Below, in pieces: positions 850 to 29,200 of a stretch of DNA of 36,357 bases. The notes beneath the pieces are model-generated. The model was not told the origin of the DNA. It did no database searches and was given only the letters and a program-made list of their open reading frames with translations. Source of the DNA: Psammoneis japonica (lineage: Eukaryota); contig QPGO01000050.1 in assembly GCA_008632985.1 (NCBI GenBank), positions 496,001 to 532,357 on the forward strand, written 5' to 3'. The position numbers and the translations under genes are program-made. How positions within the stretch are numbered: position 1 is the stretch's first letter; each line of letters starts with the position of its first letter.

Positions 850-3050
850 TGCATGGTCAGACAGTCCATGGCTGGACATCTGCTGAGCTCACTTGACCAG
901 ATCTGCACATTCTTGCAAAGCTCAACCAGCTCCTTTTCTGGCTCCACATTGAAGCTTCCATCTCCTCTCATCCTTCTTTTGAATCTCAAACAATGGGAAA
1001 AACTCTCATGACAACTGCCAGGTTGGTCAAAGCTGCCTGCGGCACTTGTGGCCATCACATGACCTGCTGATGAGCAGCTGGGAGGTGCTTTGACTCTGCC
1101 TGCATCAGCACGTTGGCTGTGTGATGAAAATGGATGCCAAGGTCAATGATGTCTACACCTTTCAGGAATGACCAAAATCCATTGTGCTCAATCAATGACT
1201 GCTGCACCACCAGGTGCAGGAAGATCATGGTCGTCTCAACCAATCATGTTGCCAAGTCTCCCTGCCAGGTCAGGACTTGGCAAACTGGCATGCAACAAGC
1301 TTGCATGTGGCCACTCTTCACTGTGGCAGTTCTCTTTCTTGTCATGGGAATCTTTCCCACCTTTGCACATCTTTGCATTTTTGTGGTGGCAGATTCTGCT
1401 GGTTCTGGCACATGCAAACCAAGCTTTTGATTTGGCCCAGTTGTTGGCTCACATCTAATTTTTCCATGCTTTGTGCACACTGTTGTGCACTTGGTCCAAG
1501 AGATGCTGGCTGGGGCTGCATTGGTGATTGATGCCACATTGAGAACAATGGCAGAAAGGAGCATTTTGCTGGTCATCAGATCATCTGCCTTTCTTTCACA
1601 GCTCATCTTTTACAGAAGCGGACATGCAGACATGTGGGGCAGCCACCAGCCCACATGCTCAAGCTCACTTGGGCCATTTTTCCAAGGCTCCACATGATGT
1701 TTGACAATGTCAAAATCTAAAAACACAGGGGCTTCCATGAACTTGGCAACACACCAGACTGTCAAACTTTGCATTTTTGAGATTGTGTTGTTCAGAGTCA
1801 TGCCAGTTGCAGGGTGGATGAGCTCCAAAAGAACAACTGCAATCATTCAACACATTTCCAATGACACAAGTGGTGCTGGTTCTGGTCCACCACCATGGCA
1901 CCAGAGGCAGGCAAGTGGCAATTGAGATGTCATTTTGCCGCTCCCAAGACATGTTGCAAAGGGCCAGCTTGTGACCATGTCTCAGCCATCAGATTGCTCA
2001 CACCCAAGAGAAGAGCAGCTTGGACATGGCTCATTTTGCATGGGATCTGCAAATTTGTTCATGAACAGGATTTTTGTGATCAACAACAGCCAATGGAGCT
2101 CAGAGCATTCCTTGCACATGCAAAAGCCATTGCCCCTCAAAACTTGGGTTGCCACTCCATGTGACCCAGTCAAAGAGGGCAAGTTGCTGCAGCACACATC
2201 ATCTCCTGTCATTTGACCTGGTGAGAAGATGTTCCTTGCTTCTTTGTGTTGCACCAGTCTCTGAAGAGCTTTTGCCTTTCCTTTAAGAACTTCCTGAAGT
2301 GTTTCTTCTTTCACAGAAAATTGCTTGAATGAAAGAGAGGTCATCATGAAAAAAAGCTTCCAGCTGATCTCTTGGCCAATGCAAGAGAGACATGAAGTGC
2401 AGCAAGTTTGGAAGATGCTCTGCCCCTGGTCTGTCAATTGCTCTTGCTGGCTCTTGCATGCCATCATCTTCCTGTGAGCACATGCTTCCATGTTCCATGT
2501 GCAAGTTTGTTGCTGACCAACGGCTCAATTGCAGGTTGCACTGCCCACCTGATTTGGCAATCAAGGGGTGTGTGCCAAAAAGGCAATGGATGCTGCCCCC
2601 AAGCATGTCCACATGAAGCAACAACATCCATGATTCTCACGATCTCAACAAGCAAGGGTGCTGGAAGCCAAGTGGCATTGTTGATGCTTTGGTTGCATCT
2701 TTTGAACATGTGTGGGATTTTCCCAACATCACGATGGAGACAGCATGGGTGCTGTGGACTTGGGCAGTGTTTTGCCATTGTCTGGAAGCAAAACAAAATG
2801 GCAAGTTCAACCAAACTGATCTAAATTAGATTTGTGTGTTTTTGCAGAGCAGAGGTCTGCCATGCTGCCAAGTCAAGGGCACAAAAGGCAGAGCTGCGCA
2901 TTTGCCTCTGAGGCCCCACCAGCCTGGAGCTGCACGGGCAGGTGACCAAAGAATTGCTGTTCTTGGCTCTCAAGATGGAGAGAGTGCATGCAAAGTTGCA
3001 AAAAGAAAATGATTTCAGTGCCTGCAAGATCACCTGCTTCAACTCATCAT
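850..3050 (-). pseudogene. Heavily decayed coding-like relic of unknown family
   Basis: Successive minus-strand ORF fragments read as protein-like (e.g. SFKQFSVKEETLQEVLKGKAKALQRLVQHKEARNIFSPG; FMEAPVFLDFDIVKHHVEPWKNGP). No family recognised and limits are approximate. Confidence 0.3.
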
Positions 3051-3056
3051 GAACTC

Positions 3057-3245
3057 ATTTGCTGTGTCTTTTTCTGAAATCACCACTTCCCTTCTTTTCA
3101 TGTCTGTTCACTTTCCTGTTGATGAGTTGTGCTGCCTTTCTTGCTGCAGTTCACAAATTAATTTGCTGCACCTTTTTCTGAAATCACAATTTCTCTTCTT
3201 CACATCTGTTCACTGTCCTCTTGATGAGTTGTGTGTTGCCCTCAT
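3057..3245. repeat. Degenerate tandem duplication, period ~104 bp
   Basis: atttgctg..ctttttctgaaatcac..tctgttcact..ttgatgagttgtg occurs from 3057 and again from 3161. Confidence 0.75.
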
Positions 3246-5012
3246 CTTGTTGTTCTCAAAGCCGCATTTGCGTGGCACATGCATGGCTGCTGCTCTCCAC
3301 AGAAAGCCAGACAAATGGGACTGAGATGCAACAAAGATGGCAAACACAAGAAAATTTGTGTTTTAAAACAACAGGTTTTGCTCTCTTTGTGACTGTTTTG
3401 GCCCTTCATGTTTCCAACTCTTGGCTGATGCTCCAAACAAATTGGTTGCCTGGGCTGTCCCAGTCACAACAATCACCACCTGGCTGAGCTTTGAGGGGCA
3501 GAACAGACATGTTGGTTTTCACCTTTGTCACTTCTGGACCCATTCTGAATTTTGGTTGCCTTGGGATTTTTTGCAGCATGCTGCACAACTTGGCAGCAGA
3601 AGCCATGGCTCTGCTGTGATGGAGCCTGTTTCTAATCTGGAAGACACAAAATTTTGACTGTTGGATTGGAGAGGCTGGTCATTTCTTGCAGTTCTTTGCA
3701 TGGTGCAAATTGGGAAAGAAACAAGCTGCAGCTGTTGCTTGTTTTCTTGCTTGGAGGAGATGAGTGTTGTTCTTCAATTTGGTGCAGTTGGCCACTTTTT
3801 AAACAGAGAGCTGGGGAGAAAAAGTTTGTCTCCATTCATGGGGAAGCCTCAAGCACTTCATCAATTGTGCCCCCATGGATGGGGTTTGGTTTGTCATTTG
3901 ACAGAGCCTGGCTGAGCCTCCTTTTGGTGCATTCCTCACATTGTGCTGAACAATTTGTGCAAGCAAAGTGTTTGCCAACAAAGCTGGGCTTGTCGAAACA
4001 CTCGCACAGCAACGGACAACAACTCAAGCTCTTGGCACCCAGGTGGGAAGGTGGTCTTGTACAATGATGCTGGACAACTCTGGCATGGGAACAGGATGTG
4101 CCTCCTGCAGTGGACAAATGACACTGGCGATTGCTGCAGTTGCACCCAGCCCACAACTCCCAGCAGCCAGGCCGTCATGCTGCTTCAAAGGCTGTGACCT
4201 CCATCTCCACACACTTGAAGCTGAACAAGGCAAGTGCAAAAACAGCTTGCAATCAAGCAAGACCTGTCATTTTTGACAACTCAAAATGTGCACATGCTTG
4301 CAAGTCTTGCTCCTGGGAGCCTGGGCTGGCTCGCCAGCATTGCATTTTGTGCGAGAGAGTGGTGTGGTGGTGGTGAGTTGCATGAGACACAAGAAGTTTG
4401 CCAGTTGGAGTGACAATCCATGTCATGAGAATGCAATCAAAGAAAGCATTCCTTGTGTTGCCATCATGGTGAAAGTGAATCAACAGCTTGGAGGAAGGGG
4501 TGCGTGCTGCCTGAGCTCTCCATGTCTCTCAAAGGAGCACTGTGTGGTGCTGTGCTGCAGAGAGAGCAGCCGAGAAAAAAGACACAAAGATGTTTGGTGT
4601 TGCACAAACAGCACAAAATGTGTTTGTTGCAGCAGTTCATTGGGTTCACCCTTGCAACTCTGCTTCTCAGCTAGTCAGGGGGGTGGACCGAGGCAAGGAG
4701 CCCCTCGACTCCTCGCACAACTTTGCTCATCCAACCTTGTGGCCTTCGAGTTCTCGTACTACAATTAGAAATCTCAAAACCTCGAACATCTCAACGGGCA
4801 TTTTGTATGACTCTTTGAGAACTTTTGGTGTTCGCATCTGTCGCCTCAACTGACAAATAACCAGCCACGAAACCGAACACTTCGAAACGCCCAAGAATGA
4901 CAGCAAATCTTTCACAGCACAACGCTCAACAGTATTACCGTACAATAACACACGCCACGCAACATTCAAGAACTTGTTACAACAAAAGCACAACAGATAC
5001 TACATTAAAACC

Positions 5013-9639: not shown

Positions 9640-11070
9640 GCCGTGTCCAAGATGAGCATGTTACAATGCAGTCATTTGTGAGTTGCTGTGACAAAGTCTT
9701 CATCATGATGAGTGAAAAGTGTCACAGTTTTTCGCTCACGGCTGCTCCAGCTTTTCATGTGCTCAGGATGCAACAGCTCAGTGTTCTGTTGAAGCAAAGC
9801 AACAAAGTTCATGTTGGCCTGAATTGTGTGCTGATTCTCATTGCTCATTTCATCAGTTCCAGCCATCAATCCCTCGTGTGACCATCCCCAGCTTCTTGGG
9901 CCTGCTCCTCCAGTGCTGGAGGAGGAACAGAGGGTGCAGCTTCTCATTGATCAGCTCACACACAACACCTGTCGGCGACATGGACTGGGCCATCTTTGCA
10001 AGGACATGGGGCCACAGAGCTGTCAGCATGTTCAACAGGACCTCAAGATCATGGCAATGATGAGTCACAAGAACAAACATCACCATCTTGTTGTTTTGTC
10101 TGAGTGAAACAGAGCCACATCCAAAGGAGTCCTCAAGAAAATGTCTTTTTTGCACACAGATTCTTGCTTGGTGCTGTGTGTTGCAGCAAGAAACACACAG
10201 GGTGTTCATTTTCTTCTTGAAGACATGCACAATGCAGTCAGTGCAGTGGTGCACAACTTTTTTCTCCTTGCTGTGACACAATGGCACCCATCTCCAAGAG
10301 GAGCCAGGCAATTCCAAAGCAATGTCCTTGTTTCCACTGCAGTCATTGCTCATGTCATCATTGATGCTGCCCAAGAAAAGTCCAGTGCAGCAAGCAAGAG
10401 CCAATGGCATGCATCCAGGCATTCTCAATTTTTCACAATTGACATCAGTGCCACAGAACAGCAGCACTTGGACCACTGCTCTTTGTTGATGCTCAACAGC
10501 AGTGCCGTGCCAGAACCATCTGTTGTGTGCATGTCAGCACTGTTTCCAATGAGCAAGGCAGCAGCCTGTGCATGCCCTTGTGAGCTTGCGTGATGCAGAA
10601 GCATTTTCTCATTTGAAGGCATGGAGGCATTCTGGCAAACTTGTGTCTCTTGCATCAACACTTCTTGTCACACCACCACAAGACATCAGCAGCTCCACAA
10701 AATTTGCTTGTTTGCGAGGCAGGCAGCACAATGTGGAGAGCCATCCCAAGCACTCCATTGCTTCCCTCCTTTCAAACAAACAGCCACAGTCTCACCCAAG
10801 CATTCACGTGAGCTGCATGTTCCAACAAGAGGCAAACCATTGGCAGGTCTTGACCGCAAACAGCAGCGGCAAGTGGAGTCCTTCCGTCATCATCCAAAAC
10901 GTTCACATGAGAACTGCTGTTTGCTGTGACGAGATCTTGTGCTGCTTGGACATCTCTGGAACACTGTCATCAGACAAAAATCACGTTCAACAGAGAAGGC
11001 ATCTTGCATGTTCTGCTTTGGTTGTCATTGTTTTCAGTTTCTTGTTTCCAGTTTTGGCGTGACTTTGGCG
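9640..11070. other. TpA-depleted hypermutated island 2
   Basis: About 1.4 kb essentially without TA, flanked by TA-rich intergenic DNA (9300-9480 and 11120 onward). Confidence 0.9.
9920..11030 (-). pseudogene. Decayed ankyrin-repeat protein gene
   Basis: The minus strand reads HVNVLDDDGRTPLAAAVCGQDLPMVCLLLEHAAHVNA (~10910-10800), LLHHASSQGHAQAAALLIGNSADMHTTDGSGTALLLSI and VQVLLFCGTDVNCEKLRMPGCMPLALAC. It ends ALWPHVLAKM..VVCELINEKL and has multiple frameshifts and stops. Confidence 0.75.
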
Positions 11071-11362
11071 GCCCCTGCTAACACGGTAAAGATGGCGCGC
11101 GATGATGATATGAACGACGGTTAGTCGGTAAATAATAAATAATTCAAAGACCCTGATCTGAACCCTGTGTCCCAACAAGGGAGTTGTTGTTTCCATCAAA
11201 TAGTTTTCGAACGCAATCCAAGGTAAGGAGAAAGAGAACGACCGGAGTAAGAACCGACTAGCACTTAGGGTACGTTAGTTTTCGAAGCAAGAGAGTGCGC
11301 CTTTGGAGTGAATTGGAAGAATCATTCAACACCTTGAACTGAGACTATATTATACATCGCTT

Positions 11363-12691: not shown

Positions 12692-12873
12692 TGTGTCAGG
12701 GATTCACGTTGACAGTGGATTGAATCAATGGGAAACGCACTGCAGCTAATCGAGCATCATTGTCGGTGCATGCCGGTCCACGCTCTGACCACCTGTCCGC
12801 CCGCCCGCGCCCGCCCCGAACCTCGTGCTTTCTGTCCGTCAGTTGTCCGCAGAGAGTGTCGTTGTGTGTTGTG

Positions 12874-13036
12874 TTCAAACATATACATGAACGAATAAAA
12901 AATCGAAAAAGCTGTACGAAATCGAAAAAACAGCACGTACATTCCAACATGCATGAACGAATAAAAAGTCAAAAAAGCTGTACAGCAAATCGGAAAAACT
13001 GCACGTACATTCAAACAAGAATGAACGTATAAAAAT
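12874..13036. repeat. Tandem repeat, ~66-68 bp unit x ~2.3
   Basis: catgaacgaataaaaa..aaaaagctgtac..aaatcg..gcacgtacattc at 12886 and 12952, with a partial third unit at ~13020. Confidence 0.85.
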
Positions 13037-13068
13037 ATAGACTCTCTCCACCCTCGAGGTTCGCCCCC

Positions 13069-16000
13069 CACCGACGGAAGTTTAAGCCAATCAGAAGAGC
13101 TTATTTCAGGTGTACACGTCGAAACCCTTAATTAAATATTTTGAAATACACATCATCTTTGTTTAACGTTTCGTTCCTCTTCTCCCGTAGACAGACACCA
13201 ACCCGACCTCAAATGGGCGCAACACACTGATGACTTCGAGTTCACTGACAAGCTCATCCCTCCATCCGACTTCAAATTTTCAACCCATTTTCGCTCTCAT
13301 TTCTCACTGAAGTTGAGCACCGCGTTGCACATGTTGTTGAGCATAAGTCCTGACGAACAACGAAAATGAAAGACTTCACCAATTGCTCCAGTAGCACCAT
13401 GGGCATTCAATCGCAGAATCGAAAGAGCCCAACGAAAAAGGCGAAGGAAAGCGCATGTTCTCGTCTCGCCCGCATCAGCACAGGCTCATCCCCATCAAAA
13501 CCAGCCCAAGGCAAGTTCAATTGAACGCATTTGGAATGGTTGACGACCGAGTTGACAATGGAAGGAAGGAATGCAAGAGATGCAAACAAGGTCCCACCTG
13601 CAAAAAGGGCCGTGACGAGACCTGTCCCCATTCAAAGCACTGCACGAAGAGTGGGATTGCGGTCGAGGCCGAGAAGAAACTCCGAGACCGTGACAACATC
13701 AGCCACAAGGTTCCAAGTGATGTGAAACACAGTGGCAGAAATTTGGACCCTTCTTTTTTTCAGCCAAGAAGCACTGTGGAATCCAAAAATGACCCTCCAC
13801 CCAACGCAAAGGACCCACCTCCGACTCCGACTGCCGTGATGACGAACGCCAGCACCACAACCAACTTGCTCGAATGCAACCCTCTCTCACCGGAAGTGCT
13901 GAAAGAAGAAGTAAAAAAGCGGATTCCAAAATTTTCTGCGAACAAGTCGGCCTGTCCAGCAAGCACACAAGCACTTGTGTCGCATCTTCACGACTTGTGC
14001 CCGTCCAGATTCAAAAGAGCGATTCGAATGACATCATTGAAGGAGACATCACGGATCGGAAGCTACAATGGTGTCAGAAGAATTTTCCTGCTGGAACTCT
14101 GTCATTCACTGTGCCACGAGATGACAAGTCCATTGCTCCAGATGCTGTGTGCTGTGAGATTGAGGGTGTCACGATTTACATTGTGCAATGGGAACTCAAT
14201 GGCATCGGCATCGAGTTGACATGTGTGGATTGCAGGGGCAGGCTCACACACCAACGATTTGATGTCAAAAGAGGCCATCCACTTGCTCCTGTTTTTGACA
14301 TCAGAGGAACTGCTGATTGGGCCAGCTCCATGTGGTGCAAATGTGACAAGTGCGGATTGTCGTGTCGCAGCAATGACGGGCGTCTCCTGCACTCTTTGCC
14401 GCTGCACCTGCAGATGGCATGCCCAGTCGATGTAAGGCATGCATTGGTAAACAACAGCTTTCACATGACAAAGACCACCACACACTGCATTGATCACATG
14501 ATGCAGCAATGTGGAAATGGCCAGGCGATTTTGGCGTTCCTACACCGAATGAGGGCGGCAGCCTGCAAGGACATGGAAATGTCCTGTTGTTCACAATCAA
14601 TCGCAGCCAAGTCTAAAAAAACAAAGGCACTTTCAGAGTTTGAAGATTGGACTGGACGATGTGGACCAACAGGAGAAAACATTCGGTCAATGTGTGATGC
14701 TGTGGCTGCCTCAGAATTGACCGAGCACGGCACCTCAGACAAGATGCATCACACGCTAGAGATGCAGTTGGTTGGGAGCAGCACAAGTGTCGCGAGTGAC
14801 CATGCTTTTGATCAGTTGAAGAACTGCTCTAAAACTGAAGCAACTGGACTCTTTGCTGTGGTGGTTGAGACCGGTGAGATTGGCTCCGCAGTTTGTGTTC
14901 CGTCCTTGGAAACCAAGGACTGTGCCCATGCAGAAGAACAATTTGCAAAACGGCCAAACGTGCATCCAAAAGTTCATTTCTCAGATGCTTGGCCGAACAA
15001 TGAATCGCTCTGGAAGGAAATGTTTGATTGTGAGATGGACTGTGTCTTGGACTGTGCACTGGATGAACCGCATCAGTCGGACTTTGCGGAAGACACACGC
15101 TGACTTCGGAAAGGCGGTTTCGGATTTGAAGCTAGCTGTGCAATGCATGGCGAGGAGCTTGATGAAGCAAGGGCAATTGAGGCGTTGGCCTCTGGCAAGC
15201 TGAATGGGAAGAAGCACACCACCAAAGAGATCCAGCAGCTCAAGGAGAGCAAGCTGTGGAAGAATTGTGCTCCCAACATTCAAAAGTGGGTGCCACCTTT
15301 GGAAGAAAGAAACAAAAATCTTGATGCGTGGTTTCAGAAGTGCAAGTGTGCCGCGTCACCTGGGGCACCACCGGCACAAGGACGATGTGACCCTGATTCT
15401 GGAAAGCCGCTCTTCACCGAGGACACAAAAGAGGCCGCAGAGAATGGAAAAAAAAAAACAGCTCCTGGTCTCTGTGAAGCAATGAGTCGGGACAAGATGC
15501 ACAGGGTGGTGCTGCCGTCGAAACACTCCAAGTCCCAATTGAACACGCACAAATCAAATGTTGGCACAGAATCAAGACTCGAAAAGTGTCACGATCTTGT
15601 CAAGAATTTTGCAAACACCGGCATGAGATCATCACTTGCCAATTGTTCATCCTTGCGAGGGACGTGTGAGCACAACTGTGACATTCGTGAACGCATTGAA
15701 ATTGATGAAATGACGCCGGAGGAACGCGCAGCGATTCCACATGCATTTCGCGGTGTGGTCGCTCACTGCAACCACAGCAGGTTGCATTTCATCAATGGGC
15801 TTGCCAGGCGTGCTGGAGTGTCACATGATGTCCACCAGAATGTTGGGCTGTTGAAGGAAGACAGTGGTGAGCGATTTTTTTCTGAGCACATGGATCAACT
15901 GGCGACGCTTGATGTGAAGGCACGTGACAACAGCAAGGACGTCAACTGGTGTCCCTTTAAACTGTGCGGGGGAGCAGCACCGAGGTCGCCGCATGCCACC

Positions 16001-16681
16001 AGATCAAATCCATGTGCCAAGAGGAGCAATGTAGAATCTATTTTGGAGCCACCAAAAAAGAAATTGGCGGTGTCAACCAATTTGGAGACACAACATGACA
16101 CAGCGTCGCGCTCCAACATGGTGGCCAGCACTGTGGAGGCGACAGCACCATGACCCGCATCCTCGACACCGACTCCTTCTGTCACAACAGCACCTCCAGC
16201 TTCCTTGCTTCAATTTAATCTGTTTGTTGTGCGGTGGGATTTGTCATGCCACCAAACAACCAGGCAATGCTGCCGCCGATCAACAATTTCTGTTGTTTCA
16301 AAGCAGCTGCTTTCCATCAGCATTTTGGGCACTGCAACGCGAGGAAGGGTTCCTCATGATCAATGGTGTTTGTTTGAGCAGTTTTAAAGCAGTTTGTGTT
16401 TCATCATGTGCAATGCCAGGACCAAAAATTAGGACCGACGGAAGACGACGGAAAACCCCCGCCATCGTCTGCATGATGTCAGCACTTCAACACTAGATTG
16501 TTGATTGCAATTTTTGTGCTTCACTTTTCCTTGCTTGTTTTGCCGCCACAAACTGCTCGAAACAACGCACTTGTGGCACCATTCAAGTCTCTTGACAGAG
16601 GCTTCCTTCTTCTCCATCTCAAAGCATTGACAAGGCTTGCTTCGCTCACCTCCCCTCCCCCCCCCCCTTCTTCCATCGGTG
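13069..16681 (+). mobile_element. Decayed DNA transposon (Mutator-like DDE); ends tentative
   Basis: Contains the transposase relic listed next. Candidate 12-bp inverted termini are CACCGACGGAAG (13069-13080) and CTTCCATCGGTG (16670-16681), each flanked by a C-run. Confidence 0.5.
13399..16153 (+). pseudogene. Frameshifted, hypermutated transposase-like gene (Mutator-type D..D..H..E arrangement)
   Basis: ORFs 13455-14219, 13874-15103, 14853-15203 and 15143-16153 join through frameshifts near 14020, 15050 and 15140. Motifs: CxxC pairs (CVDC, CDKC), VASDHAF, FSDAWP, HWMNRI and GTESRLEKCH..FANTGM. Superfamily assignment is by motif spacing only. Confidence 0.65.
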
Positions 16682-17789
16682 CCCCCCAATTTTCAGCAGT
16701 GGGGCCCTGCAGTGCAGCGTCTCCACCCACCCATGCACAACCTGAAACCCACGCATCGCGGCAATGGGCGATGGCAATTGGCTTTTGCGGGGGCTTTGCA
16801 TTGCTTTTCAATAGAGCTGAAAGGAACACCGGTGCTGTGCAGTGCGTTGTTGCTGTCAGATCAACATGCAAGAAAATGACAGCCACACAAACAGATGGAC
16901 ACGAGAGCACCATGTGCACAAACTTCTGAACAGTTGAAAAGCGTGGACTTTCATGTGGCATTTGTGCACAACACAACATGAACACTGCCATTTGTTCTGG
17001 CAAGAGCCGTTGTCGTCAAACAAAGGTGCACATGAAATCCAGTGCAAAATGTCTGACCGGCACAACAGGTGCGTTCATCTGTGCACAGCCCAACATGGTT
17101 TTGATTGGTGTTGGTTGGTTTTGTCACTGGAGATTCGCTCCCCAGCAGTGCATGCCAGCACATTTTAACACATTGTCACACCGCCACAGTGCTTCTGAAT
17201 GTTGAGGAGTGACTTTTGAGTGACGAAACCAAGCAACACCAATCCAAACCTTTACAATCATCAGCAGAAAATGCAGACGTTCAGCGCGACTCTGCGCACG
17301 TGCTTTTTCTGCATTTTTTGACAGGTTGCAGGTTTGGATTGGTGTTGGACGGTGTTCCTTCTTCACCGAGGAGATCCATTTCCCAGCGCTCAGATTTGCC
17401 ACAGCGCTGCATGTTTGCAAAAAACTGCAGCACTTCCGAATGCCGGAGAGCGAATCTAGAGTGAAGAACAGAAGCATGAACAGACGGTGAAGCCATGGCG
17501 CATCATTTACAATGACCCTGCCCACTGGCATCTCACTGTCGGTCATGGCCGTTTGTTTTCTGTGGATGGTTGACAGGTTGTGCCGGCATGTTGTCCTCGG
17601 TCGCCTGTCATTCTGCTGCTCTTCTGTCATCGCTGGCAAGCATTCCATGTCTGCCATTGCCGGCATTCATGCTCATGAGATTGCAGCATTGACTCTCGTG
17701 GCAACCCCATGGTCGGTTGGTGACAATGGCCTCCGTTCAAACGCAGCGCCCCCATCATTTTCATTGTTTGCAACAACAACAACAATGCT

Positions 17790-17853
17790 GACACACAGCA
17801 GAGGCATCATGTGCTGACCGACACACAGCAGAGGCAACATGTTGTGCTGACTG
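17790..17853. repeat. Short tandem duplication (~30-33 bp x 2)
   Basis: gacacacagcagaggcatcatgtgctgacc followed by gacacacagcagaggcaacatgttgtgctgactg. Confidence 0.8.
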
Positions 17854-20800
17854 ATGATTGAACTTGTGGCAGTGGTTGTCAATGCTGCAGCCTCGTGTTG
17901 TGGCTGCATCAACAAGGACAACAAGAAGAACAAGAAGATCATGAGGTCGCCATGCACTGGAGCCACTTGCACATGCAAGCCCAAATGCAAGGACAATGTG
18001 ACAAACACATCCAATGATGCTGAATCATCATCAAGAAGTTGTCCATGAGCCTTTGATTTTTCACATGTCCACTGCATCTCACAAGTTCTAAGCAGTGGCA
18101 TGGAAACGCGTGTGTGTCTCTTCGTTGTTGTCCTGCAATGGATTTGTCTTTCTTGGAGAATTGCCGTTGTTCTTGCGTTTGCTGCAAAATGGCTCTCTGT
18201 TTTTTTTTTCAAGAAATGTGCTCACTCACTCACGGATTTGGCTGTCTCTCATTGCAATCTGGGTTTTCAGTCCACGCTGCAATTCGTTGTGTCTCATTGG
18301 CATCCACATGAGGCGTGGTTGAACCACAGCACTCAGATTCGAAGCGAACGAAGTGTGGGATCTCATTTTGGATCTGGTGACGCGAGTTTCCAATTTTTCC
18401 AGATTTCCACTTGGTTGCATCGATTTTGCACCTCAAGTGCACTGCAGATGCTCCAGCAGTGAACCACAAGTCAAGAAGGCAAGATGGTGTGATGACAGTG
18501 TGTTGATTGTGAATTTGTTGACTCACTCAATGGGGTTTGTACGTTGTGCAGGATGTCATGGAAAGTCACAGGAAAAGCACCTCCTGCTGCCAGCATGAAA
18601 CAGATGCAGTTGCAGTTGCAAGCATGAGCTGAATTGTTTTTTGTCACATGTTTTCAAGTGGGGGCATTGACAGCACCTCAGTGCCTTCTGCCATTGCCAG
18701 CAGGCTTTGAGCAGATGGTCAAAGAGCCTCTGCCCTGCAACACTGCCATGCAAGAACTGGCCAATGATTGACACCCCCCCCCCCCCCCACTGTGATGCTG
18801 ACCCAAAGGCAGACTTTAGCAAGTGGACAAAGCCAATGGACATTGCCAGAGAAATCAGCCTTTGCATCGACAATCCACCACTGCAGCTGCATTCTGGAAG
18901 CTTGATCAAGATGTTTCCGTCTTCCAGCGAAGAAGGCGGAATGACACTCCACTTGGTGAGACAGATGAGCTTGTCCATTGCAAGCTGGTTGCCATGCTTG
19001 ATTGCCAAGCTGAAATCTGGCAACTGCACCACAAGCGCCACCATCAAGAGGGAATGTCCCTGCGATGCAGACTGAGGCTCATTGGAGCAAACAACCCAGC
19101 CTGCTGCATCTGGATTGGATCCTAGTCCTGCTGCACTTTCCAGACAAGATGCACTGCAAAAACTCTGCAGTGCCTGTCGTCATTGGTCGCAACCATTTTC
19201 CATTTGGAAAAGTGCACGAGCAACCTTTCCCAAAGTCGCCAATTTCATGCTGGTGCTGCCAATGGAGTTCATCACTTGGTGCCCGCATGCTGAAGCTGGT
19301 CTCGCTCTGTGATGGAAATGTGAACACCTGGACATTTCACCCTTCAATGTTGTTTCCTTTTGCAGGTGGGTGGTGGAGTGAGAACCAAGGATTGCACATC
19401 GTGCGAGAGATGACCAAGCCCATTGTGCAGATGTTGCTCTCAAGAAAGGGTCATTTTTTGCTGCAAGGCAGTGCAACACTTCTTGTGGAGGTGCTTGATC
19501 AGAACTTGCTTCTTCTGAAAATCGTGTCTTTTGAATCATTGCTCACGTCGTGTTTGTTGGCTGCTTTTTGTGCCGGACTGCTGATTCCGCCATGACGAGC
19601 CGTCCTTCCATGCGATTTCATGCTGCTGTCCTTTGTCCCAAAGGCGGTCTGCATGCTTGGGTCGACAGGTGAAATGGGGTCATGACAATGTCAAAGCAGG
19701 GATGGAACAATGGACGTGCACGAGAAGGACGCACACCCAAAACAAACCATTGCCACCTTTTGCATTCGTTGTTGACATGCTCTCTGGATGGCACCATCGC
19801 ATGGAGGTTGTGAAACAAATCATGGTCGCTGGATGTGAAGAAGAGAGTGACAGCCACAAGAAAAGACCATGGAACCATGCAACAAGTGAAGAAACATCAA
19901 AGCCTTGAGGATTCTTTGTTGACATGCTGCCAATCTGCTGTTCTGTGAAGCCTTTTCAGCTTGCACAATGTGCTCTAAGCTGCATGATGGGAGAGCTTCA
20001 TCCCAAACCATTGCCTGCCAATGAACAAAATGCTTTCCACTGTTCTGCCACCTCAGATGCTCCTGCAACTGATTGGACGGACAAAACTTGTTGCCCAACA
20101 ATTGCCTCATCTTGCCAGGCATTTCCCACCACACGACTCTTGGTTGTGAGTGCTCACAAATCCACATGCCCTGCGATGCAGTCCAAAGTGGTCTCATCTT
20201 TGCTCTCTTTTTGATGGCAGTCGGAGCACCGCGGGTGCAGCCGGTGTCGCCTTTTGGTCATGACTTGCAAGCTCACATGACAGATGCCTGCCCCCTTCCT
20301 GTCTCAAAATGAAAAGCAGTGACTTGTGGGTTTCTGATGGATTTGCTTTGGGGCACCCTGCGCACAGTGTAACTTGCCTTGTCCTTTGGACATGGTGGGG
20401 AGATTTGCGACCCATTCAATGCCAAGGAAGCCTTGACACAAGCACTGCCAGGTTTTGACATGCAGCTCTTTCTCCCAAACATGTCCACATGCAGAATTCT
20501 GTCCCATGTGATTTGGCCAGCACAGCAAGAGGCTTGCAATGAGCGGTTCCTGAGTCTTGGCTGTCACAATTTCGAGCAAACAATGGAAAGTTTGAGCCAC
20601 TCTATCCAGCGTTTAAGAGGGAGGCATCCATTTTTCTCCCTCTGACAGAATTCAGAATGCCTCTTTGGAATCATCTGTGCTTGGTCATCAATTTTGCTGA
20701 CGAGCTGGATTTCATGGCAATTTGATCCAAAGCAACTGTGGCATCCTCTGACATTGGCGTTTTTAAATGACAATGAACCAGTGTTTTTGTCAAGAGACTG

Positions 20801-21645
20801 CGCTTGTGCTGATGACTTGGATGCAACAAGCATGGCCTCAAGTCGCCGTGGCTGCAACATTGTCTCGAGAAAATGTGACACGCCGGTTTTAATCTCGTGG
20901 GATCATTGCAGTTTGCCGACACATTGGTCACACGTGGTCTTGGTTGCAAATGTCCATCCTGCCAAAGATGCTGGGCGGACGACAGATTCGATGATGTCTT
21001 GAGAGAATTGCAGCTGTGGGAATTGCACCATGCCTTTGTTGGAGCTGTTGAAATGAGCAGCGGAGAGTGAAAGGACGATGCCTTGTGTTCCTTCATGCTG
21101 CACAGACCAACCTGAAGGAAAGGAGCCATTCAAGTGCACATGCTTCGATGGGAAAAGGCAGAAACCACAGCAGCCAGATTAAATTTTTTCAATTGCATGC
21201 GAAACAATGTTTTTCCCTTTGTTTTTAGCCGACCGACCAAGCATCTGAAGCGTCTTTGTTTCCTTTTGCACTGCAGGCAATGAACATCATTGACGTCAGC
21301 AATGGCAGTGGTGCTGCTGCTGAAAGCGGAGATGTGGCTCTGGATGACAATGTTCTCCATTGTCGCCGCACAAGGAGAATTTCGAGCTCAAAGAAGAACA
21401 GCCTCTTTTCGAACAGCAAAAAGAGAATGTTGCGATTCTTCGGTTTTCTAAGAGATGCAGCGTCTGATGAAAAATCGCAAGAGAAAGCAAGTTTGGTGTC
21501 AACAAGGACAACAAATGAGATGTTGATTGCTGCCTTGCATGCCTCAGGCAACTGGTGAGAACTGAGTGGGAAATCCCTGGGAGACACAACAGCAAATGAT
21601 GCCGAGAACTGAGCTTGGAATTGGTGGGGTTTTCTGTGACATTGC

Positions 21646-21675
21646 TGACATGACCATTCCTGACATGACCATTCC
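21646..21675. repeat. Perfect 15-bp tandem duplication
   Basis: tgacatgaccattcc x 2. Confidence 0.85.
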
Positions 21676-22647
21676 ATGCGCCATTGGAGTCAGCGAGCAC
21701 CACATTTCTTCAAATCTGCAATCTTGCTTTTGACTTGATCATTGTGCTCCTTGGCCATTGACATTTCCACGCCTTGTCTCCCATGGCTTCGGATGCAGCT
21801 CTTTGGCCAAGTTGTCATTGTCAGTCCAAGCACCAAATTTTTTTCCCAAGAGAAGCCATGCAAGCTCTGGTGAGAGAAGAGAGTTCAATGATGGACTCTT
21901 CACTCCATCTCCTTGTCGGCAGAAACCTGACTCCTTCAATCATCTTGGTTTTCGAAGCCACCAACATGTTGCCAGGAGTGGACAGGCTGCATGATGATCT
22001 GACATGAGGGATGAAACAAAATGACACTGCATGATGCTCACCTTGCATGCCACCAGCCATGACAAAATGTGCATCAACAACCTGGGGGTTCCAGTGCAGC
22101 CATGGTCCCAGCTGCTCTGAGAACAGCAGCTGCACAGCTGGATGTCTTGACATTGCTTCCACCTGCAAGACCAAGCACTGGTGAAAAGAGTCAATTCAAA
22201 AGTGGCTCCTGCCATCATGCAGGCACAAAAGAAGCATTGAAATCTCTTGCTCAAATGCACCCACATGAAAAAGTGAACCGTTTCCAAAGATTTCCACTTT
22301 TGGCTAACCCACACCCCCAGCACACCTGTGTGCAGCAGGGGCTTGTGACAATTGGTTTAGATTGATGCCACAAGGCTGTGGCATCCACCGGAAACAGCTG
22401 ACAACAACAAAAACAGGGACCAGCACAACACAGCTTCAAAAGGAAAGTGCTCAATGCTTCAATCAGATCATCTTCCTAAGATTGAGGCTGGCGGCACAGG
22501 TGAAATGGGCAGTCTGGAAAGGTTTCAACATGAGAAGGAAAGGGACACAAATTGGCCACCAATTCACACTGAACTGGGCTCAAATTCATGCTTCTGGGAG
22601 CAGCAATGACAGAGAAGTGTTCACAGCATGGAGCAGAGAACTTTAGA

Positions 22648-23045
22648 AGACAATGGGAGGAAGGGGAGTTGTTGATGCCAGAGAGGCATGGACCAAGAGC
22701 AGCCAGCACTTTGGGAAGTTGATCATCCAAAAAGACCTTCAAGACACGCAGAAAATGTGCTGAAACTTGTGCAGACTTGTCGGCACGTGAAAGGATGGCC
22801 AATGCACACTGAGTTGGTCTCTTCTTCAAACTTCTGAAAACAGCAACGATGGGACAATGTCAGCCACACAATGCAGGAAACTCAAACAGACAACAGAGAG
22901 AAGGGGGGTCGTTGACACTTGAGAGGCATGGAGAGAGAGCATTTGGCAGTTTGACGAGTTGTCCGTTGGAAATGACTGCAGAACATGCAGAATTTGTGCT
23001 GAAACCTGTGTGGAACTTTGCACACGAGAACAGAAAATGCTGAGA
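22648..23045. repeat. Degenerate duplication with 240-bp period
   Basis: agacaa at 22648/22888, gagaggcatgga at 22681/22921, and tgtgctgaaac in both units. Confidence 0.7.
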
Positions 23046-25844
23046 AGAATGCCAAGCAAATGAGCCAAGAGAGCTTGATGCAAGTCGTTTTCCACTGCAC
23101 AAGATTGCCAATTGTCACAGAATGAAGGCACATCAACAAAAGAACATGTCTGAATGGGAGGGCATGAACTGTCATCACACCATCAGAAAAAGGCAACATC
23201 CGCACCAGAGCTTGCACAGAAAAACACGCAGATGGTGTGACCATGAAACTGAGACACAGAATTGTGCCCTTGGTCAGATCATCAGGTGCACAGGGTCTCA
23301 CTTTGGCCCCAGTGTGAAGTCAATTTTGGTGGGCTGTGCACATGGAGGTGGAAATGTCTTTTGCAACAAGGACAGCTTGCAGCAGAGACAAGTGATGCAA
23401 AGAGCAAGATCTTGCACATTGACACCTTTTCATGTCATTGCACTTGTCAACAATGGTTTTTCCAATGCAGGTGCAACATCCGATGCCCTGTCACCAGTGC
23501 TGTGATCCTCCTCCTTGGCTGGTGTGTCCCCATGCCAACAAGAACGCCTGCCCAATGTCTTGGAAGTGAGGTGTGCATCTGCAAGAAAGCAGAGACAGAG
23601 ACAGTTGACAAACACAACACAGAATTGCAGGTCTCACTTTGCCATCATTGGCACTTGCAACACAAGGAGGAGCAGGAGTGGCAGACCCAGCCTTGGCCCC
23701 ATTCTTGCATGCCTTGCTGGTGCTCCACTTCATCAGGTTCAAGAGCACACTTCCTGGCAACTTGTTGAGTTCTTTTGCCCACACACATCAAAATCACAAG
23801 TGTCAAAGCAATCGCCACCATCCTCATTTTCATCCTCTTTTGTCTTTGGCCAGAGCTTGCCCAGCCACCCCTTGCACATCTTCCTTCAACAAAGACACAA
23901 GGTCCAGTGATTCAGGTGCTGCAAGCTTGCTCCATTTCATCATTGAGGCAGTTCATGGGGCTCGGACCAATGCACTGACCAATGCACCAGGGACAGCACA
24001 AAAGAACAAAACAAGCAACAGCCCACACATCCTTCTGAGGTTGAAAGTTTTTGCTTCATGTCAGCCTGGGTTCATCACAGCTGTGGCATCTGACCAGTCC
24101 AACACATCAAGATTCAAAGGTGCCAGGCAAAGGATGAGGCATGTCAATCACAAGGCACTTTGGTGTCAAAAGAAAGGCTTCTTCTCTGCACTTTGGGCAA
24201 AACTTGCAAGGGGCCAATCAATCACAAAGATTCTTCAACCATTGGTGCACTCTTGTCATTGTCATCTCAACAGGATGTGACTCTCATTGCTTTGTTTTGC
24301 ATGCTTGTCAAATCCCAATGACTGCAACAGCACAAGACAGGATTGAACAAAAGATTGCAGCACAGACAAAACAAGACTGTTGTCATTGTCATCATCATCC
24401 AGGTTCTGTGCCAGTTGCACAGGGGAGGGGACTGCCTGAGCATTGGGGTGGATGACCAGACGAAGCATCATGACATCATTGAGACAACAAATTTTGTTTT
24501 CTTTTGCTGCCCTTTTTCCTTGTCCTTTTTTGAATGAGCACCCTCAAGTCAACGGACAACAACAACAGCGCCATTGGATTGCAACAGACAGCTGAACAAA
24601 AATCACAAAAAAACAGAGCAGACTGTCAAAAGTCTTGCCTTTGGCAGCTCTATCTGTCATGTCACCCTTCCTTGTCATGCTGACCCTGGTTGAAGATGCA
24701 AGCTGTTGTTTTTCTTGTGTGGCTGTTTGAAGGCTTTGCACATCAGGTCATGAACCCAGAGCAGACAATCACTGGGTGTTTCATCTTCCTCCTGTTGAGA
24801 ATCTGCTTCTCCACCAACTCACAATGTTGACCAATGTTTTTCCAACCGCGAGCCTTGGAAGCAATGGTGTCATTTCCATGGAGCCTTGGCCTTTCATCTC
24901 AGGAGATTCTTCACAATGTTGCCAAACTCATCTTTTGCTTCCCTGTCCACAACTTGGTTGTCAGCCACTGTGAAAAAAGACCAAACAGCGCCAACAGCAA
25001 GATTTGAAACTGTGGAGCTGAGGGAGGAACACAGTCTCCACTGTGAAGATGGGGATGCTCTCTGGACCTGTGCCGCAAAGCTGGCCTTGGGGATGAAGCT
25101 GTTCTGGTGAAGAAATGCTGAGCAGCTGACATGTGCACATGCCGGCTCTTGATGCCACACCACTCAAGGTTGTTAAGCTCCTCTGTGGTTTTCTGGTGCT
25201 GAGTGACAAACTGCCTGGTGAACTTCCCATTTCTCATTTCCAACTTGCAAGTCCAACCATTGGTTTCAATGCAATGGAGCCCACACTTGCATGTCTCAAA
25301 ACAGAAAGACCAGTTGTGGTGCATTGACGGGGCAATGCGGCTTGCTAAAAAAGTGGCATGTGATCTTTTCATGTGCCCTTTTTAGCCTCTCTGGTGCAGC
25401 CCCATCAGCAGCGTTGTTGTCGCCCCCAGAATCTTGAATCTGAGGCATGCCAACAACAACAAAACCAAAAAAGAGGAAAGAAGCAGTGGGAGTGAGATGA
25501 TTGACAACTCATGTTGGGAGGATTGGGATGGAGGGTTTGGATGGGAGGGAATTGTTTCATGTGTTGACATCAATGGCATGCACTTGACACACATCTCTCA
25601 ACACAAGGTTTGTTTTGCAGTGTGCTGCAAGCTCCTCCTTCCAGAGTGTCTTGTCTCACAATGCAAGCATCAAGGCATCAGTGTTGCTGGCAGATTTTTC
25701 CCATGACAAACCACTTCCCACATGTGTGCCACTTCTTTGTGAGTCCTGTTGTGCTCTGTGCTTTGCCAATTTTTGTTGAACAATTTTTTGTGTGACATTT
25801 GGTTGTCATTGTGAAGTTGTTGTGAGAGAAAAGACTTGTTGTTC

Positions 25845-26239
25845 TTCCAACCATTTTCTCCTCCTGAATGGCAACATCTCACATTTGTTTTGAGGTTCAA
25901 TTCATTCAAATCACATTGCCACAATTCAAACATGATGGCACGACATGTTCCGCAAAGTTTTTTTCATTGAAAACTGCCCAATTGAACATGAGACAACAGT
26001 GCCCAGTTTGCGGCAGCAGACACACCAGAAGATGAAGATTTTCCAACCATTTTCTTCTCCTGAATGGCAACATCTCACATTTGTGAGGTTTCATTCATTC
26101 AAATCACATTGCCACAATCCCAACATGATGGCATGACATGTTTCTTCAAGTTTTTTTGTTTTTCATTGAAAACTGCCCAACTGAACATGAGATGACAGTG
26201 CCCAGTTTGGGGCAGCAGACACACCAGAAGATGAAGATG
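25845..26239. repeat. Tandem duplication, 196-bp period, high identity
   Basis: ttccaaccattttc..cagcagacacaccagaagatgaagat starts at 25845 and again at 26041. Confidence 0.92.
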
Positions 26240-29200
26240 TGGGGTCATGCTGACAGCACCGGACAGCAACATTGGGGCCCCACAAATGTCCCACGGAACA
26301 GCCCACGGCTGTGGCAAGCACCTGTTTTGACAAAAATTCAAATGCTGCACTGACAAAGTCAATGCTGAAAAGATGGTCCTTTTTGCAGAACTTCATGCAC
26401 TCTGGTGTTGTCTGTTGCCAGTTCATGCCAACATTTGTGTTTTGATGAGCCGGCAGACTGTGACCACATCCCAAGTGATGCAATCAACTGAGACCATTTT
26501 TAACAATTTCCACTCAACATGGGCTGCCAGCTGCAAAAGACAGCAACAATGGTGTGTGTGACAGCTTGCAGCCTCCCATCCCCACATTGATGAGAAGGGC
26601 CAACTGGGTGGTGGGACAAGCCTTTTTTCCTGCATCTGAAGTCACAATTTTCTTGTTGAGAATGAGAAACCTTGCTCGTGAGAAAATGGTCATGGAGTGA
26701 CATCAGACAAAATTGATTTTGAAGACATTTCCCATGACCAAGACTCAAAGTTTGCTTGTTCATGGAAGTTGACCGGCTCTGTCAAAGAGGTGCAAGTCAA
26801 TGTCACATGGATGTCTTCCAAAGAATCTGCCTTTGTGACCATCATCAGAGTCAAAGTGCACAGCTGCATGGACCTTGTCAGCTGCCTTGTTGCAAGTCTC
26901 AGACTTGTGGCATCTGCCAGAGCTGCGCTGGTCACAAAAAGCACCACCCAGCAAATCACATGTCACTTCAAGCACAGCCACTGTGATTGCAGCATGTTGG
27001 TGGTGTGCAAATCTGAAGAAGTCGTTCACTGCACATTGCAACATGATGCAAACAGAAACTGAGAGACCAGAGCAAAGAATGTGAGGTTCATCATGAGATT
27101 TGTCTGTGGTGTGTCTGAAATGAATCGCTCTTGTTGAGATGCTTGTTGTGGTGCAGTGATCATTTTGTGAGCTTGAAGTGAGAAGCAATGATGTCAAGCT
27201 TTCACTCTCTTGTTGCAACCACCAGCATCGCAGCTGGGCAAGTGTGTTGCATCACCAATGATTGCTTGACTGTCACATGTGCAGACAAAATGAAATGCAA
27301 GAGTTTAGATTGTGGTGCAGTGCAACAACAAACAACAAACATCAAATTTTTTATAAAGACATGCTCAAGATTTTAAATGGGATGTTCGTTTAAAAGTCAT
27401 TGGACATGCTCACATTTTTCTGGGTGCAAGCACTTTGAAATTTTTTGGATCTGCTTTCACACTTCGGCAATGTAAATTTGGCAGCGCATCATTCAACATT
27501 GCAGTTCAGCCATGGAGAAACTTGGCACTGTGTGGGTTCATGCACGACAGCTCGCCATTGCATGTCATCAAGACTTTGAGGCATGCCCCCCATCACAACC
27601 ACAATGATTTGACACACAACACATTGCAGAGCTGTTCTGTGCAGTGCAAAGAATGTGCACATTGTTTGAAGTTTGGTTGAAAAAAAATCATTTTGTGTCA
27701 ACAAGATGTGGGGCATTCTTGTTCAGAGCATGAGAGGGGACAAAAGGTTTTGGCATCTGATGACTGCATGTCCAAAGACAGTTGAGCCATTCCAACCAAA
27801 GCTGTTGAAGCTTGTTGTGAATGATTCAAAGTCTGTTGGCAAAGATGATTTGTCTCTGAGAGGGTGTGTCAATGTTGGGGTCTCTTTGGTGTGTCAGTTT
27901 TGAGGTCGGGAGAGTGCTGGGGGCATGTGCTGCATGAGATCCACAGCAACTCTCTTTCAAAATTGTGGAAAAAAGCAAACATTGTCAAACTCAGTTGACA
28001 ACATTGTGAAACCAAGAAGAGCAGAGCAAAGAATGAACATCACAAAAAATGGCTGTTTGCAGCACAAAGCCATCTGCCATGCACCACAACAAAAAATCTG
28101 TGAGCCACACAGACAGCCGTGGCAAATCACCAGGGGCCATCCTCAACAAGTTGCACATTCCTGGCAAGATGCCTTTGCTTTCCATGCTTGTTTTCTGGTG
28201 CCTGGTTTGTTGCATGTGTGCAATGACACCAACAAGCCCAGTGCAGAAAAAGCCAAAGAATTGCCACAAAAAAATGGGGGCTGGCCTGGAGTTGATGCAG
28301 CCCTGAGCAAGCCCAAGAGGTCAGTGCTTCTTTTCAGGTGGGCACCATGACAACACTTCAATTGTGGCAAAATGCTGCAGGAAAGTTTTCCCCAATTCTC
28401 TTGTCACAGCAAATCTTGATTTTGCCAGTGAGTGATGATGCACACAATGATGCTGGTGAAAAGCGCAAGTGCAAGCAGCCCCTGGACGACAGGTGGGCAA
28501 AAGCACCATCTCAGGGCACTTTCTTGCACCCCATGTGGCACTCTCTTGCACGCCATTGTCATGTCACAAAGATGTGCACATCAGCAAGCACTTGTTGAAG
28601 ACAAACAGAGAGCCAATCTTTTGGAGAAGCAGCATGCTCTGTGTCATCTTCGGGGGTCTTGATGCTCAGTGTCATGTGGCTGGCAAAGAGCAGCTGGCAC
28701 ACCAGCTCTCCACCCCATGTCACAACAAAGGAGAGTGAGAGTTGCAGCCAAAGGACAGAGCTCAGCAATGTGGTCAAGTTGCAAGTGCAACAAACACAGA
28801 CATTCGCAAAACCCTGGTGTGTTGGAATGTAGAGAACACAGAGCGGATCACAAAATGGGCTGGCAACCCACCGCATGCTCACATTGTCAAGCCCATGTGT
28901 GTGTGCAAAGTGGGGAGGGGGGGCTCAGATGCGAGAACCTCAGAGACAATGTGTTGCTGACAAAAAGCCAGACGTGTCATCAAAGGTGGACTTGCATTTG
29001 CGTTCCGACAGGTGGTGCAGGTGAAACTTTGGAGATTATTTGTTGTACAAGGCAGTCAATGCTAGTTTGGATAAAACGATTCAACAAGTTGGTCAAGAAC
29101 GATTCAACGTGGCCCTTCATCAGTGCCGACAACTGCTCCATAGAGCACATGCCCAGTGCACCGATAAAGCCAATTTTCCATGCTCCAACAATGGAACATT

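Follow-up and report, generated by a model that had tools for sequence, protein, structure and literature searches.

Introduction

How does a gene that looks like a transposase come to be almost free of tyrosine? The question is raised by a stretch of 36,357 nucleotides from the diatom Psammoneis japonica (contig QPGO01000050.1, positions 496,001 to 532,357), to be referred to as the window; all positions below are those of the window unless a locus is named. Two open reading frames (ORFs) in the same frame, at 13874-15103 (409 aa) and 15143-16153 (336 aa), contain a single Tyr residue between them. An earlier note on this DNA had pointed this out, and a count bears it out (extended from stop to stop, the frames cover 13793-15100, with one Tyr, and 15104-16150, with none). 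The note took the ORFs for a transposase in which Tyr codons had been changed to those of Cys and His. The analysis reported here indicates that the region is very probably a dead element of ~3.4 kb, carrying a DDE-transposase gene, that was hypermutated from TpA to TpG or CpA after its insertion in the diatom nuclear genome.

Results

Loss of the conserved tyrosines

The read-through ORF was aligned with 41 relatives. The Tyr content of these proteins is 1.7-5.5%, compared to 0.1% in the query, and the median of the best 150 of 787 relatives (3.6%) predicts about 26 Tyr residues here. At the 18 columns with a Tyr majority, the query has Cys in 10, His in 4, and Leu, Phe, Met, and Asn in one each; Tyr is found in none. 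The other conserved columns are retained in 170 of 287 cases (Fisher p 2e-7 against the Tyr columns). The relatives themselves, taken out one at a time, keep on average 74% of the conserved Tyr residues, with a minimum of 35%.

There are 135 mismatches at conserved columns, 78 of which can be reached by one base change. These 78 comprise 16 TA>TG, 5 TA>CA, and 10 CG>TG/CA changes, 11 other transitions, and 36 transversions. Per opportunity, the rates are 21/318 for the TA type, 10/277 for the CG type, 11/921 for other transitions, and 36/3833 for transversions. The TA-type changes outside Tyr codons are Thr→Ala (three times), Asn→Asp, Ile→Val, Ile→Met, and Leu→Ser, as predicted for a TA that lies across a codon border. 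Arg is retained at only 7 of 22 positions, and its losses include CGN>CAN/TGN changes such as Arg292→His (Arg in 41/41 relatives), which are the mark of CpG decay. The route proposed in the earlier note, Tyr→Cys/His and Thr→Ala by way of TA→TG/CA, thus accounts for 14 of the 18 conserved Tyr columns and 21 of the 78 single-step mismatches. Judged from the alignment, TpA→TpG/CpA conversion appears to have cost this copy every conserved Tyr (0 of 18 kept).

Seven short motifs had been reverted in the earlier note to a more natural form, and the relatives agree with six of these. Both changed residues of ACPV..RHA go back to Tyr (36/41 and 29/41), QCGNG goes back to QYGNG (28/41), DHAF to DHTF (Thr in 38/41), SDAWP to SDTWP (Thr in 35/41), and FFSEHM to SEYM (Tyr in 39/41). 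For SCCS, derived from SYYS, the first Cys is Tyr in 37/41 relatives, and the second is Tyr by plurality only (16/41). The reversion of EKCH to EKYH fails, the ancestral residue being Phe (32/41). Relatives with normal Tyr content carry Tyr or Thr where this copy has Cys, His, or Ala, so the proposed recoding survives comparison with homologues.

The TA-poor blocks of the window

The window as a whole has 676 TA dinucleotides, with an observed/expected ratio (o/e) of 0.27 for TA, 0.56 for CG, 1.53 for TG, and 1.52 for CA. The shortage of TA is not specific to the transposase ORF. It is made up of three sharply bounded blocks (Table 1), in which TA o/e per kb is 0.0-0.13 and that of TG and CA is 1.5-2.0. 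At the block edges, the TA density jumps within less than 100 bp. Relative to host DNA, the blocks differ per dinucleotide by -0.0391 for TA, -0.0363 for CG, and +0.0784 for TG plus CA, at equal GC content (0.480 in the blocks, 0.477 in host DNA). The gain of TG and CA equals the loss of TA plus that of CG, a balance that fits the conversion of both TA and CG to TG/CA.

In the longest block, CG o/e is 0.35-0.9 as far as ~22 kb and falls to 0.12-0.2 past that point. Hardly any TA is left even in the part with a CG o/e of 0.35-0.9, and TA loss is therefore the faster of the two. Downstream of the element, the step at ~22 kb (from about 0.35-0.6 to 0.12-0.2) suggests that at least two repeats of different age are present in this block.

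The DNA between the blocks carries ordinary genes with TA o/e of 0.45-0.95, encoding a PhyH/DUF6824 protein, a ubiquitin-conjugating enzyme, and a Rieske protein. The depletion is directly seen to be confined to the repeats, as the blocks have sharp edges and the host genes adjacent to them (~100 bp away) are spared. The host ORF at 4854-7688 (+ strand) lies between two hypermutated blocks. It is uninterrupted over 945 aa, with PhyH-like and DUF6824 domains, and is unaffected (35 Tyr, TA o/e 0.45-0.76). It has 94 homologues, every named one of which is from a diatom; the best unnamed match is 54% identical.

All six frames are unusually open in the TA-poor region. On the + strand, the stop triplets number 390 TGA, 26 TAA, and 15 TAG over 13.8-29 kb, compared to 109, 69, and 51 over 29-36.3 kb. 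Long false ORFs appear in six frames because TAA and TAG vanish. A Pfam search with 72 further frames of at least 100 aa in the TA-poor blocks gave no match.

Differences among copies in the same organism

Contigs from a run of the same organism were placed on 12000-17500 at a likeness of at least 80%. This gave 96 contig pieces, ranging in likeness from below 90% to at least 99%. Their summed depth over ~13.26-16.6 kb is 200-300, compared to ~55 in the unique flank (4-5 times). The placed contigs show 435 transitions and 108 transversions (n = 543). The 40 of these 543 differences that were listed amount to 33 events: 7 swaps between TG and CA, 4 of TA against TG/CA, 14 of CG against TG/CA, 6 other transitions, and 2 transversions. 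A comparison of the window with itself found only 6 local repeats, and these duplicates give 7 more swaps between TG and CA.

A TG/CA swap at one site represents two independent changes of one ancestral TA, and each copy has therefore been mutated separately, as duplex DNA. In the element itself (13260-16620), the two products are balanced, with 316 TG and 342 CA. The earlier note had argued for changes in duplex DNA rather than RNA editing. This is upheld by the occurrence of both products, by the swaps between copies, and by the involvement of non-coding flanks.

Sequence context of the changes

The context was determined from near-identical pairs, with 117 events compared to 283 TA sites kept in both copies. 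The base on the 3′ side of the mutated A is C in 54, T in 51, A in 9, and G in 3 events (p 8e-18). The base on the 5′ side of the T is G in 48, A in 39, T in 20, and C in 10 events (p 2e-8). The preferred target is R-T-A-Y, which is palindromic.

The TA sites left in the blocks, a measure that needs no alignment, agree with the R-T-A-Y context from the pairs. Relative to host DNA, RTAY remains at 0.01 (2 sites left), RTAR at 0.05 (11 sites), YTAY at 0.04 (11 sites), and YTAR at 0.25 (43 sites). The most enriched products are RTGY, YTGY, RCAR, and RCAY, at 1.66-1.95 times the host density, with the rest at 1.30-1.39 times. The codons for Tyr are TAY and match the preferred T-A-Y target. In small numbers, all four Tyr→His codons follow a purine, and the 10 Cys codons follow a purine in six cases and a pyrimidine in four.

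Graded copies in environmental DNA

A scan of metagenome contigs gave 149 confirmed stretches of the family at 79 loci, with whole-locus TA o/e of 0.39-0.73. Among the 72 loci with at least 8 of the Tyr columns covered, TA o/e of the ORF falls as the share of Cys and His at the 18 Tyr columns rises (rho -0.60, p 2e-8). Unmutated copies retain 16-17 Tyr at the 18 columns. Locus L004, on the other hand, has a TA o/e of 0.24, with 3 Tyr, 9 Cys, and 5 His at these columns, between flanks of normal TA content. It has an intact ORF of 1012 aa (positions 3362-6400 of the locus) despite the change of 14 of the 18 conserved Tyr to Cys or His. The named relatives of a dehydrogenase gene next to it are mostly from diatoms, the closest being Amphora (69%) and Phaeodactylum (52%). 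The metagenome copies show graded stages of the same process, with L004 as the clearest intermediate.

Four pairs of near-identical loci were compared, and their TA-type share of substitutions is 44-77%. Counted as TA-type changes plus TG/CA swaps, L007/L023 has 45+2 among 61 substitutions, L006/L005 has 27+3 among 53, L041/L026 has 18+3 among 37, and L054/L043 has 30+1 among 68.

Six metagenome proteins (P0065, P0103, P0089, P0038, P0059, and P0118) have Cys or His at Tyr columns of the family. Their Tyr content is 0.3-1.8% (P0059 not tabulated). From their sequences, such low-Tyr public proteins are probably further hypermutated copies. Scans of viral contigs with P0065 and with the 409-aa ORF gave no match.

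TA-poor, TG/CA-rich stretches are also present in other metagenome loci. They overlap the transposase match at L045 1-1200 and L028 3601-4000, and lie outside it at L018 1201-2400 and L028 401-1200. The latter two indicate that other repeats of those organisms are affected as well.

The transposase gene and its breaks

The frames of the gene were mapped with a family profile, built without the query and run on all six frames (Table 1).

Table 1. Positions of the element, the parts of its gene, and the hypermutated blocks in the window. Block limits other than position 1 are approximate.
Feature	Positions	Strand	Remarks
One of several copies of a ~3.4-kb element, regarded as a DNA transposon	13260..16620	+	Contig breaks at 13250/13269 and ~16600-16652; raised summed depth
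Gene start, ATG at 13400 (MGIQSQNRK...)	13400..13470	+	Frame other than that of the two ORFs; E 0.012, weak alone, matches family consensus MGxQSQxR
N-terminal part with CxxC...HxxxC zinc-finger-like motif	13500..14042	+	Second frame; family profile E 4e-10
Core in the main frame	14043..15040	+	10 of the 14 recoded Tyr codons; D309 at 14798-14800, D371 at 14984-14986
Frameshifted stretch encoding the conserved HWMNRISRTLRKTH motif	15057..15146	+	Other frame; family profile E 6e-7
Main frame resumed: insertion domain and helix with invariant E566 and E570	15147..16150	+	E566 at 15569-15571; recoded Tyr codons at 15266, 15341, 15500, 15887
In-frame TGA (16151-16153), then C-terminal Cys motif of the family (QCC...RGRVPHDQWC) and TAA stop (16385-16387)	16151..16387	+	Consensus QxxxCC...RxGRPPHDxxC
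TA-depleted block with the transposase copy	13190..29036		~15.8 kb; TA o/e 0.0-0.13 per kb, TG and CA each 1.5-2.0
Second hypermutated block	1..4670		Over 1-4000, TA o/e 0.03-0.06 and CG o/e 0.04-0.09; without recognisable protein domain
Third hypermutated block	9663..11078		Zero TA throughout; flanked by host genes

The switch into the frame of the two ORFs occurs at ~14000-14040, and resident copies differ by indels at 13986-14035. The first ~45 residues of the 409-aa ORF are as a result not real protein; in the AlphaFold model, residues 1-48 have a predicted local distance difference test (pLDDT) score below 50. The TGA at 15101-15103 falls inside an out-of-frame stretch and thus does not represent a nonsense mutation. 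Elsewhere among the copies of this organism, one base is added at 15043, one is added at 15055, and two are missing at 15144.

The earlier note held that the element was disabled largely by missense change. The missense damage is confirmed, yet missense is not the whole account, as this copy is broken additionally by at least three frameshifts and by CpG decay, including the loss of the invariant Arg292.

Family and fold of the encoded protein

Pfam searches with both ORFs gave no match, and of the 8000 candidates in a word-indexed protein search with the read-through ORF, none reached E≤0.001. In an exhaustive phmmer search, 787 of 1.84 billion representatives were identified as relatives at E≤0.001, 143 of them at E≤1e-30. 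The best one (E 6e-103, 36% identity) is ~1000 aa long. The relatives are unnamed proteins from genomes and metagenomes. The element is a dispersed one, with many contig pieces in the same organism in addition to the 787 library relatives and the 149 metagenome stretches. There is no match at E≤1 between the family profile and the sequences of the Protein Data Bank (PDB). A language-model search places clusters of DUF6729 first and those of Mutator/MULE at 0.77-0.80; a literature search on DUF6729 found no paper.

The AlphaFold model based on the family alignment has a pLDDT of 78.7 and a predicted template modelling score (pTM) of 0.79. A Foldseek search with the model returned nothing at E≤0.001, the best rows being integrases and ISCth4 at E 0.02-0.03. 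A comparison by VIA-align with 48,161 chains gave 15 chains at Z≥8. Retroviral integrase cores are at the top (Z 9.8, 135 residues aligned, root mean square deviation (rmsd) 4.8), followed by the IS256-family ISCth4 transposase (Z 9.7, 336 residues aligned, rmsd 6.3). IstA, TnsB, Hermes, Tn5, Mu, P element, and piggyBac are found in lower rows.

D309, D371, E566, and E570 are invariant in the 42 sequences of the family. In the model, D309 is located on strand 305-311, D371 is just past strand 367-370, and E566 and E570 are on helix 565-576. These acidic residues would be placed as expected for a DDE triad, with E566 or E570 as the putative catalytic Glu. The earlier reading of the ORFs as a transposase stands, with the fold match, the invariant acidic residues, and the multiple copies in its favor and with no Pfam match. 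We accept the protein as a predicted DDE transposase with an RNase H-like fold, from an uncharacterised eukaryotic family whose nearest solved fold appears to be of the IS256/Mutator type. It is not filed under Mutator, because the curated profiles have no match and terminal repeats were not found (see below).

Other features of the window

The ~12 kb on the 3′ side of the element (16600-29036) is TA-poor like the element itself, and its frames of at least 100 aa have no Pfam match. The depth over 16600-17500 is that of a single copy except for one bin. The highest summed depth of the aligned region is in a short stretch at 16968-17151, 515 compared to ~57 around it. This spot overlaps an imperfect inverted repeat at 17097-17250 (arms 17097-17147 and 17200-17250, 80% over 51 nt) and may represent a short element present in many copies, for instance a miniature inverted-repeat transposable element.

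A tandem duplication is located at 25845-26238, with a unit of ~196 bp and 88.6% identity; the differences between its two units include a TG/CA swap. At 16646-16667, at about the right limit of the multi-copy element, the + strand consists of a long stretch of C (G on the other strand) interrupted by one T.

Discussion

Proposed mechanism

The events at this locus can be put together as follows. A single gene of ~1000 codons (13400-16387) would have encoded the DDE transposase with its RNase H-like fold. After insertion of the element, this copy and the surrounding repeats would have been mutated from TpA to TpG or CpA. The change would be an A:T→G:C transition at the A of either strand of the palindromic TpA, fastest at R-T-A-Y, with a slower decay of CpG to TpG/CpA in parallel. 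The TAY codons of Tyr would become TGY (Cys), or CAY (His) after a purine, and TA across codon borders would give Thr→Ala, Asn→Asp, and Ile→Val. No new in-frame stops would arise, because TGA can come only from TAA, and so the frames would stay open while missense changes ruin the protein.

Adenine deamination by a TadA/ADAT2-like deaminase acting on DNA is our tentative candidate for the chemical step, at somewhat less than even likelihood. The T-A-Y context resembles what we take to be the U-A-C context of the natural TadA substrate. The rival to this step, and to this step alone, is a thymine modification route, in which, for example, a JBP/TET-type enzyme would oxidize T in R-T-A to 5-hydroxymethyl- or 5-formyluracil, with mispairing to G and a T→C change. 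5-Formyluracil is mutagenic toward T→C. As TpA is palindromic and R-T-A-Y is symmetric, A→G on one strand is indistinguishable from T→C on the other, so the mutated sites fit either base. The resemblance to the presumed TadA context speaks for adenine, as does the text of the sole study of the phenomenon, which proposes an ADAT2-like adenine deaminase (bioRxiv 10.64898/2026.01.13.699255). The thymine route is accordingly considered unlikely, about half as well placed as adenine deamination or less. The rest of the likelihood goes to some other chemistry.

Beyond the chemistry, we infer an enzymatic and targeted genome defence. It is on balance somewhat probable that diatoms have such a defence, which would edit duplex DNA, be aimed by chromatin or guided by RNA, and change A:T to G:C at R-T-A-Y in transposons and repeats. 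This would be a mirror of fungal repeat-induced point mutation (RIP), acting by pure missense with Tyr codons as the best target and without creating stops. Together with Bigelowiella, it would perhaps be an old trait of the stramenopile-alveolate-rhizarian (SAR) group.

Several points weigh against these conclusions. Both the targeting and the chemistry are putative. The event types among the resident copies come from 33 events in 40 of the 543 differences. The stretch at 16.6-17.5 kb is TA-poor though at single-copy depth, which implies either that present copy number is not required or that the repeats there are old. The pattern used in the metagenome scan ended in Tyr, which by design kept out any fully mutated copy. 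In the pair comparisons, the direction of change depends on TA being the ancestral state, for which the Tyr columns provide the basis. The family belongs to no recognised transposon superfamily. Its match to DUF6729 is weak, being found in 6 of 42 aligned members and below the cut-off of that family in the one shown, and the Pfam MULE, Mutator, and Transposase_mut profiles match 0 of 42 members at E≤0.1. For terminal inverted repeats, a transition-tolerant alignment of the two element ends reached 38.5, the same score as the highest among 50 shuffles, although hypermutation would blur such repeats, and no flanking inverted repeats were seen in 5 metagenome loci.

Alternative explanations of the footprint

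The footprint could in principle be produced by sequencing or assembly, if modified bases in the repeats (5-methylcytosine at CpG, an altered A or T at TpA) were miscalled by a long-read base-caller. CpG and TpA could both carry symmetric modifications, and no platform is recorded for the assembly or for runs X1/X2. However, a k-mer assembly (~55x word depth) repeats the TA-poor sequence, from which it differs at 3 letters over 16652-17500 and at 1 over 12000-13250. Moreover, the copies hold fixed and differing TG or CA at the same site, independent metagenome assemblies carry the graded signature, and the de novo events in B. natans were measured with Illumina NovaSeq, according to the text of that study (bioRxiv 10.64898/2026.01.13.699255). 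An artefact is thus highly improbable.

Similarly improbable is that double-stranded RNA of the element underwent ADAR-like editing and that the edits were fixed by way of a reverse-transcribed copy. The preference of ADAR for A-to-G changes with a 5′ U/T neighbor, as given in the same preprint (bioRxiv 10.64898/2026.01.13.699255), would fit the TpA target. The predicted DDE fold implies a DNA intermediate, however, and the two strands of the element are affected about equally, the resident copies differ in their changes, and non-coding DNA is affected as well. In addition, ADAR prefers G as the 3′ neighbor, which is the rarest base at this position (3/117), and to our knowledge ADARs are confined to animals.

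A TA-poor state of the element from the outset, owed to a donor that avoids TA or to selection, with Cys and His native to its lineage, has in its favor that the closest relative is just 36% identical and that no unmutated sister copy was seen in this genome, and is nevertheless very hard to reconcile with the loss of near-invariant residues (Tyr in 39/41 to His, Thr in 38/41 to Ala, Arg in 41/41 to His), the frameshifts, the TG/CA differences between resident copies, the depletion of unrelated neighboring repeats and non-coding DNA but not of host genes 100 bp away, and the near-identical environmental pairs that differ mostly at TA.

Comparison with known systems

Hypermutation of TpA, the process that we propose for this element, is known in print from one preprint on Bigelowiella natans, as far as our searches go. 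In that organism, TpA→TpG/CpA changes arise de novo in integrated DNA of giant viruses and virophages, with a rate of ~6e-7 per site and generation, and DDE endonuclease and reverse-transcriptase domains are overrepresented in the TpA-poor coding sequences (Mettrop et al., bioRxiv 10.64898/2026.01.13.699255, 2026). The preprint describes solely TpA→TpG and TpA→CpA changes, which affect foreign DNA and spare the surrounding genome, and a long-term depletion of TpA with a gain of CpA and TpG, as in the window. There are also differences. The host is a diatom (Stramenopiles) here and a chlorarachniophyte (rhizarian) there. TA o/e is 0.0-0.13 here, near saturation, compared to a Rho of 0.45 in the viral region of B. 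natans. The target here is a family of DNA transposons together with old repeats, and TA loss is coupled with CpG loss. The rates are inferred here and were measured there. The R-T-A-Y context of this window is not stated in the text of the preprint, whose figures and supplements may hold context. Full-text literature searches for TpA depletion or hypermutation in diatoms found no report, and returned only this preprint, in the text of which diatoms are not mentioned. On this basis the diatom case, the R-T-A-Y rule, and the read-out at the protein level appear to be new.

The process has several features in common with fungal RIP. Both produce transitions only, on duplex DNA and copy by copy in repeats, with a dinucleotide preference and a sharp stop at the repeat edge, and both kill transposons. 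RIP, on the other hand, changes C→T mostly at CpA, raises TpA, lowers GC, and creates stops, while here TpA is erased, GC is unchanged, and no stops are made. The fungal RIP signature itself was considered for this window and is ruled out, as TpA is not enriched and the GC content of the blocks equals that of host DNA.

The G-to-A hypermutation of retroelements by vertebrate APOBEC3 resembles the proposed process in being context-specific, of the deaminase type, and a defence, with a lasting footprint in integrated copies. In comparison, APOBEC3 acts on C in single-stranded cDNA while reverse transcription is under way, is strand-asymmetric, and makes stops, while the changes here are at A:T, symmetric, and in resident DNA.

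As for the transposase, Mutator/MULE and IS256 proteins (ISCth4, PDB 6xg8) share with its model the RNase H-like core, a large helical insertion before the catalytic Glu, and an N-terminal zinc-finger-like motif. Mutator/MULE proteins differ from it in having the Pfam profiles that are without a match here, in place of a weak match to DUF6729.

Implications

These observations extend TpA hypermutation to a major and genetically tractable group of algae, in which it acts on ordinary transposons copy by copy. The R-T-A-Y rule narrows the search for the enzyme. The process also explains unannotated repeats that have no Pfam matches, no word-based protein matches, and long false ORFs in six frames. 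Gene callers should be used with caution on such DNA, since hypermutated elements keep long open frames (1012 aa in L004) though the protein is dead. If diatoms do have an editing defence of this kind, the degree to which RTAY, the half-sites, and YTAR have been lost would make it possible to date transposon insertions.

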